DNA of 48,147 bases, from positions 70,897-119,043 of IMG/VR virus record IMGVR_UViG_3300012663_000707; one strand, written 5' to 3'. This DNA comes from a virus. Lineage: Duplodnaviria > Heunggongvirae > Uroviricota > Caudoviricetes. This document shows, piece by piece, positions 8,097 through 36,057 of this stretch. The notes under the pieces were generated by a model. It did not search any database. It was not told where the DNA came from and saw nothing but the letters and a program-made list of their open reading frames with translations. Positions within the stretch are counted from its first letter, which is position 1. Each line of letters opens with the position of its first letter. A program made the position numbers and the translations under genes.

Positions 8097-8121
8097 GCTA
8101 TAGTATGATATTACTTTGTTT

Positions 8122-8129
8122 TATATATC
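8122..8129 (-). promoter_or_regulatory. Late-type promoter GATATATA (amidoligase, gp13)
   Basis: Recurrent intergenic octamer. Confidence 0.6.
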
Positions 8130-22229: not shown

Positions 22230-22247
22230 TATATGTTTTCTTTTTTT

Positions 22248-22255
22248 TATATATC
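22248..22255 (-). promoter_or_regulatory. Late-type promoter GATATATA (acidic protein)
   Basis: Recurrent intergenic octamer. Confidence 0.6.
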
Positions 22256-26421: not shown

Positions 26422-26425
26422 ATTT

Positions 26426-26433
26426 TATATATC
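26426..26433 (-). promoter_or_regulatory. Late-type promoter GATATATA at the head of the motif-protein operon
   Basis: 4 nt upstream of ATG, just after a terminator. Confidence 0.65.
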
Positions 26434-26970: not shown

Positions 26971-27891
26971 TTATACAAGTTCAACTGCAAATTGTTTCAT
27001 GTAACGATACCATGCTTGTTCTTTAGCTTTTGCTTCTAATTCAATGTCTAAGTCTAATCCATAATCATTGATCTTGTCATAAATATAATCTGCATGTGCT
27101 CGGTTCATTACTGAATTATCTTCATAAACTTGCTTTGCAGATGAATAATGACAAAGTTGCTTGATACCTTCTGGCCATGTAGTTGCTGCAAGTTTAAGAG
27201 CTTCTTCCTGTGTTAAAGAACCAGGGTGACACCAATGATGATGATAGTCAAATGTAACCGGAGTACCAATCATACCATGTAAGATCTTAAGATCTTCTAC
27301 AGTGTACTGAGATTGCTTGTCATCATTTTCGATAACCAATCTAGCTCTGGCTCCTTCAGTTAAACGACGAAAGTTATCAACAAATCGCTGCAATACAACT
27401 TCCTTGCCACCTTGTGTTGTGTTAACGTGGATGTTTATTGCTGCATATTGATTTCTAGGTAAACCCATCAAATCCATAACCTCAGCATGCTGGTTCAATT
27501 CTTTGATAGACTTATCAACTACTGCATCATTGGTACTTGCAATAACACAGAAGTGTCCTGGATGGAATGTGATGCGTTGTCCAGATGCCTTAGCTATTTT
27601 ACCACAACCAGACAATACATTGCTAATTCGTTCGTAATCTGGTAGATCTTTGAACTCATATTCGCTCATCCATGGAAAGATGTCACTTGACATTCTATAT
27701 AATTTTACACCATGTTGCTGATTCCAAAGCAAGATACGACTTAGATCACGGACATTCTGTAATGCCAACGATGAAGCATATTCGATACCTTTAGCCTGGA
27801 ATGTGCGCTTAACCATACCTCGGTTGGTAGTTATTTTCTGTTTGCCCAATTCCATATTGATACAACAGTATCCGTAGTTAGTTTTTGTCAT
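26971..27891 (-). CDS. uvsE: UV-damage endonuclease UvsE/UVDE
   Basis: GYCCIN, YRMSSDIFPW, TFHPG, IENDD, FDYHHH, HADYI, ELEAKAKE. Confidence 0.92.
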   Translation of the reverse strand: MTKTNYGYCCINMELGKQKITTNRGMVKRTFQAKGIEYASSLALQNVRDLSRILLWNQQHGVKLYRMSSDIFPWMSEYEFKDLPDYERISNVLSGCGKIAKASGQRITFHPGHFCVIASTNDAVVDKSIKELNQHAEVMDLMGLPRNQYAAINIHVNTTQGGKEVVLQRFVDNFRRLTEGARARLVIENDDKQSQYTVEDLKILHGMIGTPVTFDYHHHWCHPGSLTQEEALKLAATTWPEGIKQLCHYSSAKQVYEDNSVMNRAHADYIYDKINDYGLDLDIELEAKAKEQAWYRYMKQFAVELV

Positions 27892-28130: not shown

Positions 28131-28796
28131 TTAACTCATGGATGGATCCTCATGGTGATCATGTTCATGTGCCAACAGGCTTTTAATTGGTCGATCTTCG
28201 ATCAACTTCAAGACTTGTTGCAATGAGTATGGTTGAAAGTCTAAGCTTCCATCCATACCGACATCCATCATTTTACCTGGACCAACTTTAAATTGGTGTG
28301 GAGTATGCACGTGGCCATGGATATGTTTTACACCTTGACCCATATCTTGCCAAGAAGCTAACGGGTAGTGACTCATTACAAATCGGTGTTTTATCGCTTT
28401 ACCATTTTTAACATCTGGTTGAATTACAATAGTCACCATTCGTTGTTCGTTGACTGAAGCAAACAATTCACGTATTCCATCTCTATCGTTTAAGATATGG
28501 TGATCATGGTTACCCAAGAATAAGTGTATGTTTTTGCAACGCAATTGGTTTCTGAATTCTGCAATTTGTTCAAATCCACCGAATGACCAATCGCCCAAGT
28601 GAAATAAGATGTCGTTCTCGCCGACCAACATGTTGATGTTATCAACGATATTGATGTTCATTTCGTTAAGAGTTTTAAAGTCTCTTGTACCTCTAGCTCC
28701 GTCCCATTTTGAAACGCCGCGGCAAATATTGGTATGGTTATAGTGCGTATCGGAAGTAAAGAAGATTCTCTGTCCTGGGTTAACTACTACTTTCAT
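28131..28796 (-). CDS. Calcineurin-like metallophosphoesterase
   Basis: SDTH, LGD, GNHD, SHYP, HGHVH motifs. Confidence 0.92.
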   Translation of the reverse strand: MKVVVNPGQRIFFTSDTHYNHTNICRGVSKWDGARGTRDFKTLNEMNINIVDNINMLVGENDILFHLGDWSFGGFEQIAEFRNQLRCKNIHLFLGNHDHHILNDRDGIRELFASVNEQRMVTIVIQPDVKNGKAIKHRFVMSHYPLASWQDMGQGVKHIHGHVHTPHQFKVGPGKMMDVGMDGSLDFQPYSLQQVLKLIEDRPIKSLLAHEHDHHEDPSMS

Positions 28797-28812: not shown

Positions 28813-28886
28813 GTTACAGTGTAAATATAATAAAAAAGATTGACATAAAAAAATTTATTTGCAATTATTTGCCAAAAGTTATTAAC
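28813..28886 (-). promoter_or_regulatory. Repeated early-type (host sigma) promoter, copy 1
   Basis: GTTAATAAC...TGTCAATCTTTTTTATTATATTTACACTGTAAC. TAnnTTT(G/A) -7-like element. Confidence 0.75.
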
Positions 28887-28913
28887 AAAAAAAGAGTCCC
28901 GAAGGACTCTTTT
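28887..28913 (-). terminator. Intrinsic terminator closing the ncRNA locus
   Basis: AAAAGAGTCC-TTCG-GGACTCTTTT followed by a U-run. cUUCGg tetraloop. Confidence 0.9.
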
Positions 28914-28920
28914 AATATTA

Positions 28921-29181
28921 CAGGATCGTGGTTCGTGATTTTCTTCCCGGCGGAATAACCCTCTTTAGCGTCTTCGGCTTATTGCTTTCACGAGGACGTA
29001 CTCAACTTCGGCCCATCTTACTTGTCTACCTATTTGGGGTGGTATGACGTGTGACCCATTTTCCAGTGTTAGTCTTCACCTTGCCTGCAGCTTCAATGTT
29101 TAAAGTAGCGAACTAGTTTAAACTCCACTGTTGTTCAGACTTCTGTCTAGATGTAGTGTTACTTTTTGCAGCACCGATCCT
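28921..29181 (-). ncRNA. Candidate structured ncRNA, unit 2 (~260 nt; Y-RNA-like, DUF2828-associated)
   Basis: 5' AGGATCG pairs with 3' CGATCCT. GTGCTGCAAA follows the 5' stem and TGTAA follows the 3' stem. Internal hairpins. ~46% GC by hand count. No credible ORF. Confidence 0.6.
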
Positions 29182-29184
29182 TTA

Positions 29185-29244
29185 CGGGTTCCGTTTCCTT
29201 TTGCTTAATTGTAGTTGCTAGTGTATAGTTTGCTGTAAGGAACC
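29185..29244 (-). ncRNA. Candidate ncRNA, unit 1 (~60 nt; Y-RNA-like)
   Basis: GGTTCC-TTACAGCAAA-[A/C-rich loop]-GGAACC-CGTAA, starting about 10 nt after a GATATATA promoter. Confidence 0.6.
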
Positions 29245-29254
29245 ATATGTTGTT

Positions 29255-29262
29255 TATATATC
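29255..29262 (-). promoter_or_regulatory. Late-type promoter GATATATA driving the ncRNA locus
   Basis: Same octamer precedes many late genes in the window. Confidence 0.65.
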
Positions 29263-29283
29263 CAGCTTAAACTTTGTTTCAGT

Positions 29284-30717
29284 TTAAGCTGTAATTTTAG
29301 TGTAACGATCAGACATAATAGTCTTATCCATGATTTGTTGCGGAGATTGAATATCACCACCAAGTAAACTTGTCATGATTGCTGGTGAAAATCCAGATAC
29401 CAATGCAGTTCCTGCTTTATCGAATGCTACTGGTACACCACCATTTCTGGATTGGATGTTCCAATAAACAATCTGAGGTATTGTGTAACCTGCAGCATCG
29501 TACATTCTCTCAATCATTTGCTGAGCAGTAGGATTCCAAGTAGATCCTGTATTCCCCCAACCACTTGCTCTAGTTGCCGAATTAAATTCCATATCTGATA
29601 AGATAAGAATCTTGTTTGGCATCTCATCTTGAGACAAATTATGACGAGTGGCCTGATCTAAGATCAATTTAAAAGTTGCCTCAAGATTCGTAGACATTCC
29701 CCAATCGGAACGTGACATCTGTGTGTAGCGATCTTTTAATGAGCCACTTAATACTTGTAACTGTGGATTGTCCGAGAATGTGATGAATGCATCTTTGAAA
29801 GGACCTTCATTTCTTTCAGAAATATAAAGACCTAATGAGATTGCAACATCCATGCAAGTTACGGTTTTGCTACCTCCGGCTGGAGTTGACATAGAACCTG
29901 ATACATCCACAACTGGTAAAATCATATCGTTTGCACCTTCCATGTAATTCGGAAGAGCTTTCCATTGTTCGTTTGCAACAGTTGAGTTACCACGGTACAA
30001 CGACTTAGTAATATCATAAGGGTAAACTGCACCTGCATTGATTTTAGCTTCACCTTTCACTAAAGATTGGATATAAGCCGAATAACTTTCGTATGCGTTT
30101 TTACCAAATGCTTTTTGGTATCTTGCTGAAGCTACAGATGGTAACTTACCGAATTCGATAGTGTCCCATTCTTTAGCACACATTTTAGTTTCAACTACAT
30201 TGGTTAAACCAACTAGAGATTTACGGTATTGCTTTGGAGTCATACCCATAAAGTTACGTAACTTTACAGCTGCTGCACCTTTACGAGGCATCCATTTAGC
30301 ACACAATCCATTTTCTGCGATTAACGCATCAGAGATTAATGTCATCGCATCTTTTTCAAGACGAGTACCGATCAATTCTAATAGATCATCCCAACGACCA
30401 AACTCAGAAACGAATTCTAAATTTGCTTTAAGTGTCAAGTCATGTTCTTCAGCTAAATACTTGATGATGTCACGGAATACTTGACGTTCTCCAGCTCCAC
30501 CACGAACATCACGAGCCCAAAACAAAAGCTTCATTGCACGTTTCGGATCTTCATTAAATGCTTTTGAAAAGGTTGCGATCAAACGTTGTTTGTCTTGTCC
30601 TCTCATTGCGCCAATGTTAAAAAATAGATCTACACAAGCATTCAACGAAGTTGAGTTTGTTGCCATACCATTTTCTGTTACTTGGTCTTCTTGTCTTAAA
30701 GCGTCTACGAATTTCAT
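29284..30717 (-). CDS. DUF2828-family protein (Ro60/TROVE-like helical domain + vWA)
   Basis: TENG, WARDVRGGAGER, FGRWDDL, AKWMPR, INAGAVYPYDI, QWKALP, vWA MIDAS DVSGS, SDMEF, YWNI, VSGFSP. Confidence 0.88.
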   Translation of the reverse strand: MKFVDALRQEDQVTENGMATNSTSLNACVDLFFNIGAMRGQDKQRLIATFSKAFNEDPKRAMKLLFWARDVRGGAGERQVFRDIIKYLAEEHDLTLKANLEFVSEFGRWDDLLELIGTRLEKDAMTLISDALIAENGLCAKWMPRKGAAAVKLRNFMGMTPKQYRKSLVGLTNVVETKMCAKEWDTIEFGKLPSVASARYQKAFGKNAYESYSAYIQSLVKGEAKINAGAVYPYDITKSLYRGNSTVANEQWKALPNYMEGANDMILPVVDVSGSMSTPAGGSKTVTCMDVAISLGLYISERNEGPFKDAFITFSDNPQLQVLSGSLKDRYTQMSRSDWGMSTNLEATFKLILDQATRHNLSQDEMPNKILILSDMEFNSATRASGWGNTGSTWNPTAQQMIERMYDAAGYTIPQIVYWNIQSRNGGVPVAFDKAGTALVSGFSPAIMTSLLGGDIQSPQQIMDKTIMSDRYTKITA

Positions 30718-31501: not shown

Positions 31502-32605
31502 TTATACTAAATTACTAAAAGGTTTACTATATTCTGGTTTTACTAAATTCCAAACACGTTCGGAAACGTTCTTACCGTTTGCAATTCCAAAGATGATACC
31601 ATGGTTTACATCAGTCAATGCCAATACTCTTTCTGCAAACTCCTTTTGAGTTAACATTCCATCTCGCATGATTGATGAACAAGTTGCAATATGCAGCATC
31701 ATCGTATCTTTGAAGTCCTTTTTAATTTTAGTTTGAGTAGCATGTACCCAATCGTAAAATTCATCAGGTACATCTTTCAACATCTCTTCCGGTAATTTAC
31801 CGAACTTCATTAAGTTCTCCCAAATATCATAAGATGAACAGTTCGTTAACACTCGGTGCAATGCAACATAGTCTTCGAACTTGATTTTGACTCTTAAGTT
31901 AGAAGGAAAGAAACGCAAGACGTAACCTTCTTCATTGGCTTTATTCAAAGCTTTCAAAGTTGAATATAATTCAGGACCCAAATCAAAGACTTGAGTAGTC
32001 TTAACGATGTCTGATTTTTTAATACCTCTTCCTTTTAAAACAGCCATCGCTGTAGTCCAATGTAACTCATCGTTTCCAGGTTCCCAATTGTAAGTTCGGT
32101 TTAAGACCACTCCTAAGAATGTAATCTTCTCCTTTTTGTAATTAACCACAATTCTATTTTCCGGATATATGATCTCTACGATGTAAGCAAATGAAGGATC
32201 GAAAGCTGGCAAAGTATATTTAGCCTTTAAGATCTCTAAACCTCGGATAGCTTGATCAGATGTGAAAGATCCTCGTGTTGATAAAATCCATTCACCTTCA
32301 TAATTAAACAAGATACCTAAGGATCCATCCATTTTCTCTTGAACGTAAACGTAGTCAGAAGTCAACCATGGAATATCATTAGTTGGTAATTCTTCGTAGT
32401 TAAAGAATTTTGGAAATGGCTTAATGATAACCTTACCAGTTTCGTCGTCAGTGATGACACCTCGACAAGCCAAAGTTATCTCATCCCAATGCTTCTCATA
32501 TTGAGTAGATTGAGAATAATTGTAGATTGATAATGGCAAAGTAGGATGTGACTGACGAATCAACCAACCTTCTTCTACATACTTATCTAATATTGCTTTG
32601 TTCAT
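31502..32605 (-). CDS. rnlA: RNA ligase, T4 Rnl1 family (true start MNKAILD at 32605)
   Basis: IYNY, CRG, KPFPKFFN, motif I EKMDGSLG, TRGSF, EIIYP, EEGYV, KIKFEDY. Confidence 0.9.
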   Translation of the reverse strand: MNKAILDKYVEEGWLIRQSHPTLPLSIYNYSQSTQYEKHWDEITLACRGVITDDETGKVIIKPFPKFFNYEELPTNDIPWLTSDYVYVQEKMDGSLGILFNYEGEWILSTRGSFTSDQAIRGLEILKAKYTLPAFDPSFAYIVEIIYPENRIVVNYKKEKITFLGVVLNRTYNWEPGNDELHWTTAMAVLKGRGIKKSDIVKTTQVFDLGPELYSTLKALNKANEEGYVLRFFPSNLRVKIKFEDYVALHRVLTNCSSYDIWENLMKFGKLPEEMLKDVPDEFYDWVHATQTKIKKDFKDTMMLHIATCSSIMRDGMLTQKEFAERVLALTDVNHGIIFGIANGKNVSERVWNLVKPEYSKPFSNLV

Positions 32606-32614
32606 TTTGTTTTT

Positions 32615-32689
32615 GTTACAGTGCAAATATAATAAAAAAGCCTGACATAAAAAAATATCAGGCCAATTATTTTGCAAAAAGTTATTAAC
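32615..32689 (-). promoter_or_regulatory. Early-type promoter, copy 2 (perfect TATATTTG -7 element) with embedded hairpin + U-run
   Basis: GTTAATAAC...GCCTGA-N12-TCAGGC-TTTTTTATTATATTTGCACTGTAAC. Confidence 0.78.
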
Positions 32690-32705
32690 AATAACTAAGG
32701 TTTGA

Positions 32706-33095
32706 TTATCTAGATACCTTAGCTCTAGTACCTTGTATCTGTGTAAATGGTAGATTAGAACCTTTAACTTCGATAGTACCGTATGCAAATGAGATGTGGT
32801 GTGGTTGCGCTCCAACTTTACTTTTTACAGCAGCAACATAAGCTGCAGCAGCTTCGTCTTCAGTATCGTAGATCGATAATATTTCTATTTCGAAAGAAGC
32901 CAATTGTGTATTCATACTGCTTTTAAGATACATTGTAGTACCTTCAAAATCTATAGCGTTATCTGAGACAACAGCATATTTAGTTTCACCTTTTGCTGGA
33001 GTTCCAGCAACATCGACTTGATACTTACTAAAGTAATAGTAACCTCCGTCAACCGACTCGTTAATGAGTTCTCCGAATAATTTTACGTGTTTCAT
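32706..33095 (-). CDS. Hypothetical protein with MKHVKLFGELINE motif
   Basis: Shared N-terminal motif. Confidence 0.65.
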   Translation of the reverse strand: MKHVKLFGELINESVDGGYYYFSKYQVDVAGTPAKGETKYAVVSDNAIDFEGTTMYLKSSMNTQLASFEIEILSIYDTEDEAAAAYVAAVKSKVGAQPHHISFAYGTIEVKGSNLPFTQIQGTRAKVSR

Positions 33096-33402: not shown

Positions 33403-34065
33403 TTATTTTTCTTTCCATATAAAACCACGTTGCCATTCATCTGAATTTAATCTAGAGTCATTAGGATTATTTGTATGTGATCTTTTCCCTGATTTATTAA
33501 TTATCCAAATTCTAGAAGACGCATAGTTACTATAATTTTTCTTATGGTCATCTGTCCGTACCTTACCAGTGTTTGATTTCGAAATATTATTTGCCCATTC
33601 TTGTTTTTCTAAATCCGACATTTTATAATATGAAGGTTTGTCGTACATCGGGTTGTTTTCACCAGAAAGAGATTTAGACATTTTTTGTTTATGTTCTTCA
33701 GAGAGAGGCCCTGTTTTCTTTCCCTTGTTCCATGGAATATTCCCTTTTTTTGAATTAGACATTTTATCTCTAAGTTCTTTAGTCCATATTTTACCACCGG
33801 AACCTCCGATTTCCATATTATACGTATCTTTACGATCTACAAAAGATTCGTTTACTAAACATCTTTCCTTAGATAGCATATCTTCTATATTATCAAAAAC
33901 GTACAAAATATCTTTAGTAAAATTGGCCAATCCATATTTTTTAATAGCCTTTTTTATTAAAACACCGGAGCCCATATAACAATCATCTATGTTTTCGGTC
34001 CTGTGTGAACCAATATAGATCTTATGATTGACCTTATTTGTAATTTTGTATACTAAATAATACAT
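33403..34065 (-). mobile_element. Free-standing GIY-YIG homing endonuclease (Seg-like) with NUMOD3 repeats
   Basis: VYKITN..IYIGSH...YMGSG...YN. NUMOD3-like [27 protein letters not shown]. Very AT-rich. Confidence 0.88.
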
Positions 34066-35352: not shown

Positions 35353-35608
35353 AATTAGGTGATGATCTTAAGATTTTCTTTTTAAGTTTGAAAAGGTCGT
35401 CAATAGAAGCACTGCATCGTTTAAATAGAATTTGATGTCGTTCGTATGTTATCGAATTAGGTACATCAGACTTCCATTTGTTAATGGCAAGATTTGCATA
35501 TTTACGAGCAGCCTCTAATTGATCTATAGTTGTACAAGATTGAATTACTGCAATAACACGGTTGTATATTGTACGTATTTCATTTACTTTAGGATCTAAA
35601 TTAGCCAT
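35333..35608 (-). CDS. Hypothetical protein (likely start MANLDPK)
   Basis: Start trimmed to avoid overlap with the nucleotidase. Confidence 0.55.
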   Translation of the reverse strand: MANLDPKVNEIRTIYNRVIAVIQSCTTIDQLEAARKYANLAINKWKSDVPNSITYERHQILFKRCSASIDDLFKLKKKILRSSPNYGKAHK

Positions 35609-35613
35609 GACTT

Positions 35614-36057
35614 TTATTTTAAGTAAGTTAGAACTTGATTCCATGTTGGAAACATTCGACTTCCAAATAAGATATGTTCACCTTTAAACTCTCCAGCTCC
35701 GTTTTGAGTTCGGTCATCAATTAAATAGCTTCCGATCATCAAACTCTTATTATGGGTTAAGATTAGTCGCTTATGTGCATTTTGACCTAGGTGTTGTTCA
35801 CACCATATACGTTTAGCAGTCCAAGCTTCTAAGTTAGTCCAAGGTGCAGTAGATAGAATATAAACGTCATATTGTTCAGCAAGTTGATTAAATGCTTCTA
35901 ATGCACCTTCCATTGGGTTTGCTGTAAGAAATACTTCAGCATCTGTATCTAGGATTTCACCTAGTTTCGAAAGACCATCATGACCGTATTTTTTAACGAC
36001 TGCAGCTTTGATATTAACCAATACGCCATCCATGTCGATATAAACTATCTGCTTCAT
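35614..36057 (-). CDS. 5'(3')-deoxyribonucleotidase (NT5C-like HAD)
   Basis: IDMDGVL, LSTAPW, KRIW, KRLILTHNK, LIDDR..NGA.EF.GE.I.FG. Confidence 0.88.
   Translation of the reverse strand: MKQIVYIDMDGVLVNIKAAVVKKYGHDGLSKLGEILDTDAEVFLTANPMEGALEAFNQLAEQYDVYILSTAPWTNLEAWTAKRIWCEQHLGQNAHKRLILTHNKSLMIGSYLIDDRTQNGAGEFKGEHILFGSRMFPTWNQVLTYLK

Follow-up and report, generated by a model that had tools for sequence, protein, structure and literature searches.

The DNA considered here, referred to throughout as the window, is a stretch of 48,147 nucleotides (nt) from an uncultured phage of the Caudoviricetes, part of a 119-kb IMG/VR contig that is estimated to be 44% complete (record IMGVR_UViG_3300012663_000707, positions 70,897 to 119,043). 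On the minus strand of the window a gene for a protein of the DUF2828 and DUF7788 families is followed, in order, by a gene-start box, a small RNA unit (unit 1), a larger RNA unit (unit 2) and a strong terminator, and it is this compact arrangement, first picked out in a reading made from the sequence alone (the sequence-only reading), that is the subject of the present analysis. The locus probably encodes a ribonucleoprotein (RNP) of the Ro60/Y-RNA type whose protein and RNA both belong to other families. Support for this comes from the fold of the protein, the conservation of the RNAs, the covariation within them and the genomic linkage between the two. A megablast search with 20 kb of the window found nothing in phage DNA and a blastn search with the intergenic region found only a 40-nt chance match, and from these two blank searches the phage appears to have no close cultured relative. 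Relatives were drawn from IMG/VR by a protein-guided search, which yielded 80 loci with DUF2828 proteins at 58-88% identity to that of the window; 77 related loci served as the set for a rule-based scan for units, with 70 control segments providing the background.

The gene and its downstream cassette

The protein gene occupies positions 29284-30717 (minus strand, as are all features of the cassette) and encodes 477 amino acids, its identity resting on Pfam and PHROG matches, an AlphaFold2 model and structural matches that are described below. Over its stop codon lies an 11-base-pair (bp) hairpin (29263-29291) that is not followed by a U-run on the minus strand and so is not a canonical terminator for the gene. 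The box GATATATAAA (29253-29262), a motif of the gene-start or promoter-like kind, ends 8 nt 5' of the first G of unit 1. Unit 1, the small handle RNA, spans 29183-29244 and consists of a 5' arm GGUUCC (29244-29239), the motif UUACAGCAA (29238-29230), a variable, A-rich interior of 37 nt with three NAGCAA repeats, a 3' arm GGAACC (29192-29187) and the tail CGUA. Unit 2, the large handle RNA (28918-29180), has the same plan, with a 5' arm GGAUCG (29180-29175), the motif GUGCUGCAA (29174-29166), an interior of about 240 nt in which a variable UUCG-capped hairpin (29123-29098) precedes a conserved 3' domain (about 29060-28930), a 3' arm CGAUCC (28928-28923) and the tail UGUAA. An intrinsic terminator with a 10-bp stem, a UUCG loop and U7 (28883-28913) closes the cassette. 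Common to both units is what is here called the handle, namely a 6-bp helix joining the two ends, the sequence K-U-R-C-W-GCAA and, 3' of the 3' arm, Y-G-U. The G+C content of unit 2 is 45%, against 35% for the window.

The hairpin, promoter-like box, two units and terminator all lie where the sequence-only reading had placed them, the hairpin measuring one pair longer than the ten it had counted. That reading had also given the stem of unit 2 seven pairs, of which the seventh, an A-U pair, is specific to the window and is not conserved.

The protein and its Ro60-like fold

The 477-residue protein matches DUF7788 (PF25043, E 4e-54) and DUF2828 (PF11443, E 5e-36) in Pfam, scoring 183.5 bits (cut-off 27.1) and 125 bits (cut-off 29) for the pair of families, and it matches PHROG 850, annotated as an RNA-binding protein, with an E value of 9e-162. 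Homologues found by tblastn are spread over 711 phage records that include Felix O1, KVP40 and Listeria, Staphylococcus and mycobacterial phages, with those of the Felix O1 type about 44% identical to the window protein. An AlphaFold2 model built from 93 homologues reached a predicted local distance difference score (pLDDT) of 92.8 and a predicted template modelling score (pTM) of 0.91, and shows a Ro60-like order of parts, a HEAT-repeat ring followed by a von Willebrand factor A (vWA) domain. The metal-ion-dependent adhesion site (MIDAS; DxSxS...T...D) of the vWA domain is intact, and its residues D271, S273, S275, T343 and D375 are invariant in the 93 homologues. The Foldseek comparison with Ro60 that the sequence-only reading had recommended returned Ro60-type structures as the top matches: the first twelve against the PDB are all of this type (Thermus phage phiLo, Xenopus, human and Deinococcus Rsr; E 8.5e-10 to 7e-7), and among Swiss-Prot models Ro60 from five species ranked first.

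By sequence the protein stands outside the TROVE family; on the model, it is probably a very distant relative of Ro60 that works like Ro60. The Ro60-like nature of the protein is itself known already, from annotations and one preprint, and the description of DUF2828 as uncharacterised in the sequence-only reading is to that extent slightly out of date, since PHROGs and many GenBank records label DUF2828 homologues as RNA-binding or Ro-like proteins and a Ro60-like fold has been described for Bas63 gp130 (10.1101/2024.10.10.617714). What the window contributes is a clean, minimal two-RNA cassette, a 258-nt unit with conserved structured cargo and independent evidence from covariation. For the RNA half no description was found in the searchable literature, and the family is absent from Rfam 15.

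Conservation and covariation of the two RNAs

The 487-nt intergenic region, within which the cassette takes up 330 nt, retains 70-80% identity over 350-460 nt in about 45 of the related contigs, whose DUF2828 proteins are 83-88% identical to that of the window. Alignments for the closing stems were built from BLAST homology only, with no selection for pairing, and in them the motif 3' of each 5' arm is invariant while the arms themselves change in a compensatory manner. The closing stem of unit 1 carries one compensatory pair, C-G to U-A, in two of 30 sequences (alignment A2), and that of unit 2 changes from C-G to A-U in nine of 30 (CG:21/AU:9). Within unit 2 the hairpin UUCC-GCCG-GGAA (28955-28944) becomes UUCU-GCCG-AGAA in 12 of 30 sequences (CG:18/UA:12), and distant relatives supply additional pair types for it. 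The proposal of the sequence-only reading that both stems pair 5' with 3' ends is thus borne out, and in both units conservation, covariation of the end-pairing stems and an unchanging motif mark a structured RNA.

Further structure in unit 2 includes a long-range helix, CCC (29038-29036) with GGG (28961-28959), for which the counts are CG:13/UA:4 and in which four sequences have UCU/AGA. Three contigs have a 181-nt form of unit 2 from which the sub-domain enclosed by this helix is missing, a loss that fits the helix being real. A tentative hairpin, GACU (29074-29071) with GGUC (29056-29053), has a signal blurred by alignment shifts. RNAalifold predictions from the close and the wide sets of sequences agree on no more than three elements of unit 2, its closing stem, the GCCG hairpin and the CCC/GGG helix, and a 4-bp GUAC...GUAC hairpin drawn over the unit 2 motif was rejected on finding that distant relatives do not keep it. 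As a separate observation on the cargo of unit 2, the sequence AAGCCGAAGAC is invariant among 30 close relatives. Folded as a single sequence, the region shows no unusual stability (z = -1.1), so that energy alone gives no support for structure.

In relatives at 60-76% protein identity the units occupy the same place with other stems, among them GGUUUC/GAAACC, GGUUAU/AUAACC, GGAACG/CGUUCC, GAGUGG/CCACUC, GAAUGA/UCAUUC, GGAUAG/CUAUCC and AGGUGU/GCAUCU, and at least 12 stem types are found for unit 1 across relatives. Variation is free in the interior of unit 1 and in the middle of unit 2, where insertions and deletions are not multiples of three, which argues that a small open reading frame (ORF) is not the conserved feature. 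Relatives have different sequences of the hairpin-plus-U-run kind at the position of the terminator. In one relative (L055:4963-5017) the terminator region directly 3' of unit 2 gives a match to the cyanobacterial small RNA NsiR1 in Rfam (37.7 bits, gathering score 39), probably a terminator look-alike. Two other relatives belong to a clade whose units have a 14-bp outer stem (GGAAAAAUUGGUUU / AAACCAAUUUUUCC): in one (L072:4434-4580) the first handle RNA includes a T-arm-like hairpin, GACAGG UUCAAAC CCUGUC, which the otherwise collinear unit of the other (L078, 4431-4530) cleanly lacks.

Linkage of the RNAs to the protein gene

In the rule-based scan at least one unit lies no more than 1.2 kb downstream of the gene in 73 of the 77 related loci, compared with 13 of the 70 control segments. 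The loose stem-plus-motif rule has a high background, with about five matches per shuffled window, so that support rests on conservation and position and not on the pattern itself. A second match in the window to the strict form of the pattern, at 35576-35933 on the minus strand, combines a UAUUUC/GAAAUA stem whose arms are 358 nt apart with UUACAGCAA and CGUA; it lies inside two ORFs and was set aside as chance. A covariance model built from 37 short units, here called R1, scores unit 1 at 59.7 bits and has no other match in the whole 119-kb contig, unit 2 being missed on account of its long interior.

The protein genes around the cassette are far less constant. A T4 Rnl1-like RNA ligase (31502-32815) recurs in five related loci and a calcineurin-like metallophosphoesterase (28131-28796) in three, which led to the rejection of a conserved RNA-repair operon made up of these two genes; a 203-residue ORF between the ligase and DUF2828 genes is found in none of the related loci. 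The remaining neighbours are a UvdE UV endonuclease (26971-27891) and a GIY-YIG/NUMOD3 homing endonuclease (33403-34065), on the minus strand like the ligase and the metallophosphoesterase. In 21 of 53 loci the gene and the RNAs are set apart by an insert of 300-400 nt that looks like a small ORF, and the cassette stays; an A/T box (ATATAAA or AAATAAAA) is found 7-9 nt 5' of unit 1 in about 50 relatives, those with the insert included. As the flanking protein genes vary and the cassette persists, the RNA cassette is the only constant companion of the gene.

The box in front of unit 1 is one of a set within the window. Exact copies of GATATATAAA occur at 8120-8129, 22246-22255, 26424-26433 and 29253-29262, all four on the minus strand and three of them just 5' of a start codon or of unit 1, and among 19 copies of GATATATAAA/T with at most one mismatch, 17 are on the minus strand. 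Most of the copies that were inspected, exact or with one mismatch, lie 2-30 nt 5' of an ATG or of unit 1, typically directly after a stop codon or terminator. These positions suggest that in this phage GATATATAAA/T serves as a gene-start or late-promoter box and that the leaders are very short, with GATATATA as a candidate late-promoter form and the box of the window appearing to behave as a gene-start signal.

Units beside the gene in distant phages

R1 was also run, with its filters off, on 7-kb loci of twelve cultured phages, and in seven of these, from different hosts, full-length matches on the same strand lie within 0.5-1.1 kb of the homologous gene. Downstream of the gene there are three units in Staphylococcus phage S-CoN_Ph11 (best E 9e-5) and two in Mycobacterium phage MiniMac, and in Felix O1 the units lie inside a tRNA array, again downstream. 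Listeria phage VEfB7 has two units upstream of the gene, and in Fusobacterium phage Fnu1, Bacillus phage PJN02 and Campylobacter phage F360 the units, upstream as well, are directly beside it. In whole-genome scans the best R1 match adjoins the gene in three of five of these phages. The expectation of the sequence-only reading that similar stem-CWGCAA units would be found near other DUF2828 genes therefore holds well beyond the close relatives of the window.

Two further settings of the motif are instructive. In Vibrio phages of the KVP40 type the DUF2828 gene has its own Shine-Dalgarno sequence and start codon inside a handle (GACAU, UUACAGCAA, loop, AUGUC, AG); this handle sits just 3' of a GTATAAT -10 box, and its conservation extends over five phages (PC-Liy1, L002:2457-2498; KVP40; nt-1; ValKK3; D525; alignment A6). 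The sequence suggests an autoregulatory translational operator, the layout being that expected for autogenous repression. Citrobacter phage Ci1 (L001:4361-4595) has a 115-nt tRNA (55 bits in Rfam) with an insertion of about 40 nt in the anticodon region that includes CUACAGCAA, followed by a second, 114-nt pseudo-tRNA, both of them 500-700 nt downstream of the DUF2828 gene. The start-site handle of the Vibrio phages and the tRNA insertion of Ci1 both fit recognition of the handle by the protein.

Each of these settings also bears on a different explanation of the units. The overlap of the handle with the DUF2828 translation start in the Vibrio phages, and the possibility of read-through from the gene past a stop-codon hairpin that lacks a U-run, are what would be seen if the units were cis-acting parts of the DUF2828 mRNA (stabilisers in the 3' untranslated region, processing sites or autoregulatory operators) and not trans-acting RNAs. 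We regard this as very unlikely, in that a gene-start box precedes unit 1 in the window and its relatives and is kept despite the intervening ORF insert, the units precede the gene in the Listeria, Fusobacterium, Bacillus and Campylobacter phages, and a conserved structured cargo of 130 nt exceeds the needs of an operator. The motif inside a tRNA of Ci1, and the position of the DUF2828 gene in or beside tRNA arrays in many phages, are in turn compatible with independent phage small RNAs (regulators, sponges or by-products of tRNA operons) that come to lie near the gene through a shared RNA and tRNA neighbourhood. Against this stand the absence of any tRNA or transfer-messenger RNA in the window, as judged by ARAGORN, with the Rfam tRNA model also giving no match there, in a window where the cassette nevertheless hugs the gene; the constancy of the RNAs, alone among the neighbours, over the 77 loci; and the presence, in KVP40-type phages, of the handle over the ribosome-binding site of the gene itself. 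An origin as unconnected small RNAs is on this evidence distinctly unlikely.

A proposed mechanism

The reading that we favour, and consider likely, is that the DUF2828/DUF7788 protein docks on the handle and that the resulting RNP uses the variable interior of the RNA as a second binding surface. Both RNAs would probably be made as one transcript that starts at the GATATATAAA box and ends at the UUCG terminator, and that is perhaps cut into two RNAs afterwards. The handle presented to the protein would comprise the 6-bp end helix, a single-stranded U-N-C-N-GCAA next to the 5' arm and Y-G-U beyond the 3' arm, and we infer that it is here that the DUF2828/DUF7788 ring docks. The cargo differs between the two RNAs, unit 1 being a nearly 'empty' handle RNA of 58 nt with a short A-rich loop and unit 2 a 258-nt RNA with a conserved multi-helix domain of about 240 nt. 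By analogy with Y RNAs, this cargo would tether the protein to a second partner, which could be a host RNA-processing or RNA-cleaving factor, or would present a decoy. Transcription from the box, processing, binding and the tether or decoy role are all steps that we infer.

Several observations weigh against this reading of the locus or limit its reach. On the protein side, the TROVE profile (PF05731) gives no match even at E up to 10, and a phmmer search of PDB sequences finds no solved Ro60 at E up to 1. These results could be accommodated if the protein were a vWA or enzyme-like factor unrelated to RNA, its likeness to Ro60 being a generic similarity of helical repeats plus a vWA domain; beside a dozen leading structural matches that are all of the Ro60 type, and the RNA-binding label of its PHROG, we find this extremely improbable. 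What Ro60 mostly recognises is one strand of a helix (GGUCCGA or GNCGAAG); the conserved element here is a single-stranded U-N-C-N-GCAA and not an in-helix one, so that the mode of docking is not simply transferable from Ro60. On the RNA side, the 100% pairing seen in the 37 units picked by rule is circular and does not count as independent support, and four of the 77 related loci have no unit by the rule-based scan. Single R1 matches in the cultured phages are weak (E 1e-4 to 0.3), which makes position, not score, the evidence in distant phages, and in Aeromonas phage AsFcp_2, Pseudomonas phage Milchi and Sinorhizobium phage phiM19 R1 finds nothing convincing within 2.5-3 kb of the gene. The pairing of gene and unit is frequent and, at the sensitivity of R1, short of universal.

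Comparison with known RNAs and Ro-type systems

Particles of Ro60 and Y RNA constitute a long-studied system of RNA surveillance that is still poorly understood. In over 250 bacteria and phages the genes for Ro60 adjoin those for its Y RNAs, and Y RNAs tether Ro60 to PNPase (PMC4201824). In Thermus phage phiLo, Ro60 binds two phage-encoded Y-like RNAs (Yrl1 and Yrl2) and, with them, binds and attenuates the PNPase of the host (Hu et al., 2025; PMC12135203). The locus described here shares with these systems (Rsr with YrlA, YrlB or Yrn1, and phiLo) the HEAT-repeat ring and vWA domain with its MIDAS, the adjacency of genes for partner RNAs, the occurrence of phage-encoded examples and an RNA in which a stem pairing the 5' and 3' ends bears a conserved element, with a constant docking part and a variable module. 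The protein differs in being DUF2828/DUF7788 and not TROVE. The locus looks like part of a system parallel to Ro60/Y RNA, with the same fold in another protein family.

The RNAs are likewise distinct from known Y RNAs. The models Y_RNA (RF00019) and YrlA (RF02553) match nothing in the window when the gathering score is applied, nothing in the intergenic region with E relaxed to 10 and nothing in 16 related loci, where only tRNAs exceed the threshold. No tRNA-like D/T module was recognised in the units of the window by ARAGORN or the Rfam tRNA model. Chen et al. (2014) proposed GNCGAA(N)G as the sequence recognised by Rsr in YrlA (PMC4201824); it is not present in the 5' strand of the stem in either unit, that strand being GGUUCC or GGAUCG followed by CWGCAA. 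The related GNCGAAG, in the form GCCGAAG, occurs twice in the conserved cargo of unit 2 (29013-29006 and 28979-28970, minus strand), copies that match the Rsr motif of Chen et al. and may be due to chance given their shortness.

A search of the whole window with Rfam at gathering scores gave no match, and in the intergenic region at E up to 10 the matches are at chance level apart from RF01414, the Class I RNA of Dictyostelium. This is the best non-tRNA match in Rfam: unit 1 scores 17.1 bits, and the homologous units of two relatives (L055 and L050) score 30.7 and 28.8 bits, all of which fall short of the gathering score of 41.5 bits. Class I RNAs have a conserved 5' G, a 6-bp end-joining stem that varies in a compensatory fashion, an unstructured 11-nt motif after the 5' arm, a variable interior and a 3' CUGU whose C is paired to the 5' G, within a length of about 60 nt; they have been reported only from Dictyostelia, are expressed from a promoter with a Dictyostelium upstream sequence element (DUSE) and have one known protein partner, Rnp1A, of the RRM type (Kjellin et al., 2021; PMC7919456). 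Unit 1 has all of the listed sequence features, reading G-GUUCC-UUACAGCAA...GGAAC-C-CGU, and its CUUACAGCAA is the Rfam consensus; unit 2 ends in C-UGU, and four of the five nearly invariant positions of Class I RNAs are also invariant in the phage units. Differences are the phage origin, the presence of GATATATAAA at -8 in place of a DUSE about 60 nt upstream and, for unit 2, a length of 258 nt that is four times that of Class I RNAs (42-65 nt). The likeness between unit 1 and Class I RNAs is specific, and it is one of resemblance, not membership. Swiss-Prot contains no dictyostelid DUF2828 protein.

A bolder extension of the docking model would take the handle (6-bp end-joining stem, UUACAGCAA and C-UGU) as the docking site of the whole DUF2828/DUF7788 family across the domains of life, with the abundant dictyostelid Class I RNAs as the eukaryotic branch of the same RNP and with phages displaying interchangeable cargo, here the structured 240-nt domain, directed as a tether or decoy at host factors that target RNA. 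We consider this rather unlikely, and its interest lies in its consequences: were it true, there would be a second ancient Ro-like RNP system in parallel with Ro60/Y RNA. The likeness of the handle to Class I RNAs offers, in any event, a concrete hypothesis for the function of those eukaryotic RNAs.

A close parallel on the protein side is Bas63 gp130 of a Felixounavirus, which a 2024 PhageMaP preprint reports to have a Ro60-like fold, to counter the ppl defence and to be encoded 5' of tRNA genes; the authors suggest tRNA-like Y RNA partners and identify no partner RNA (10.1101/2024.10.10.617714). A defined handle makes testable which RNAs are bound by the protein, what the cargo recruits and whether this accounts for the anti-defence phenotype of Bas63 gp130. 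What is reported for Bas63 gp130 is an anti-defence phenotype; what is defined for the cassette of the window is the RNA family.

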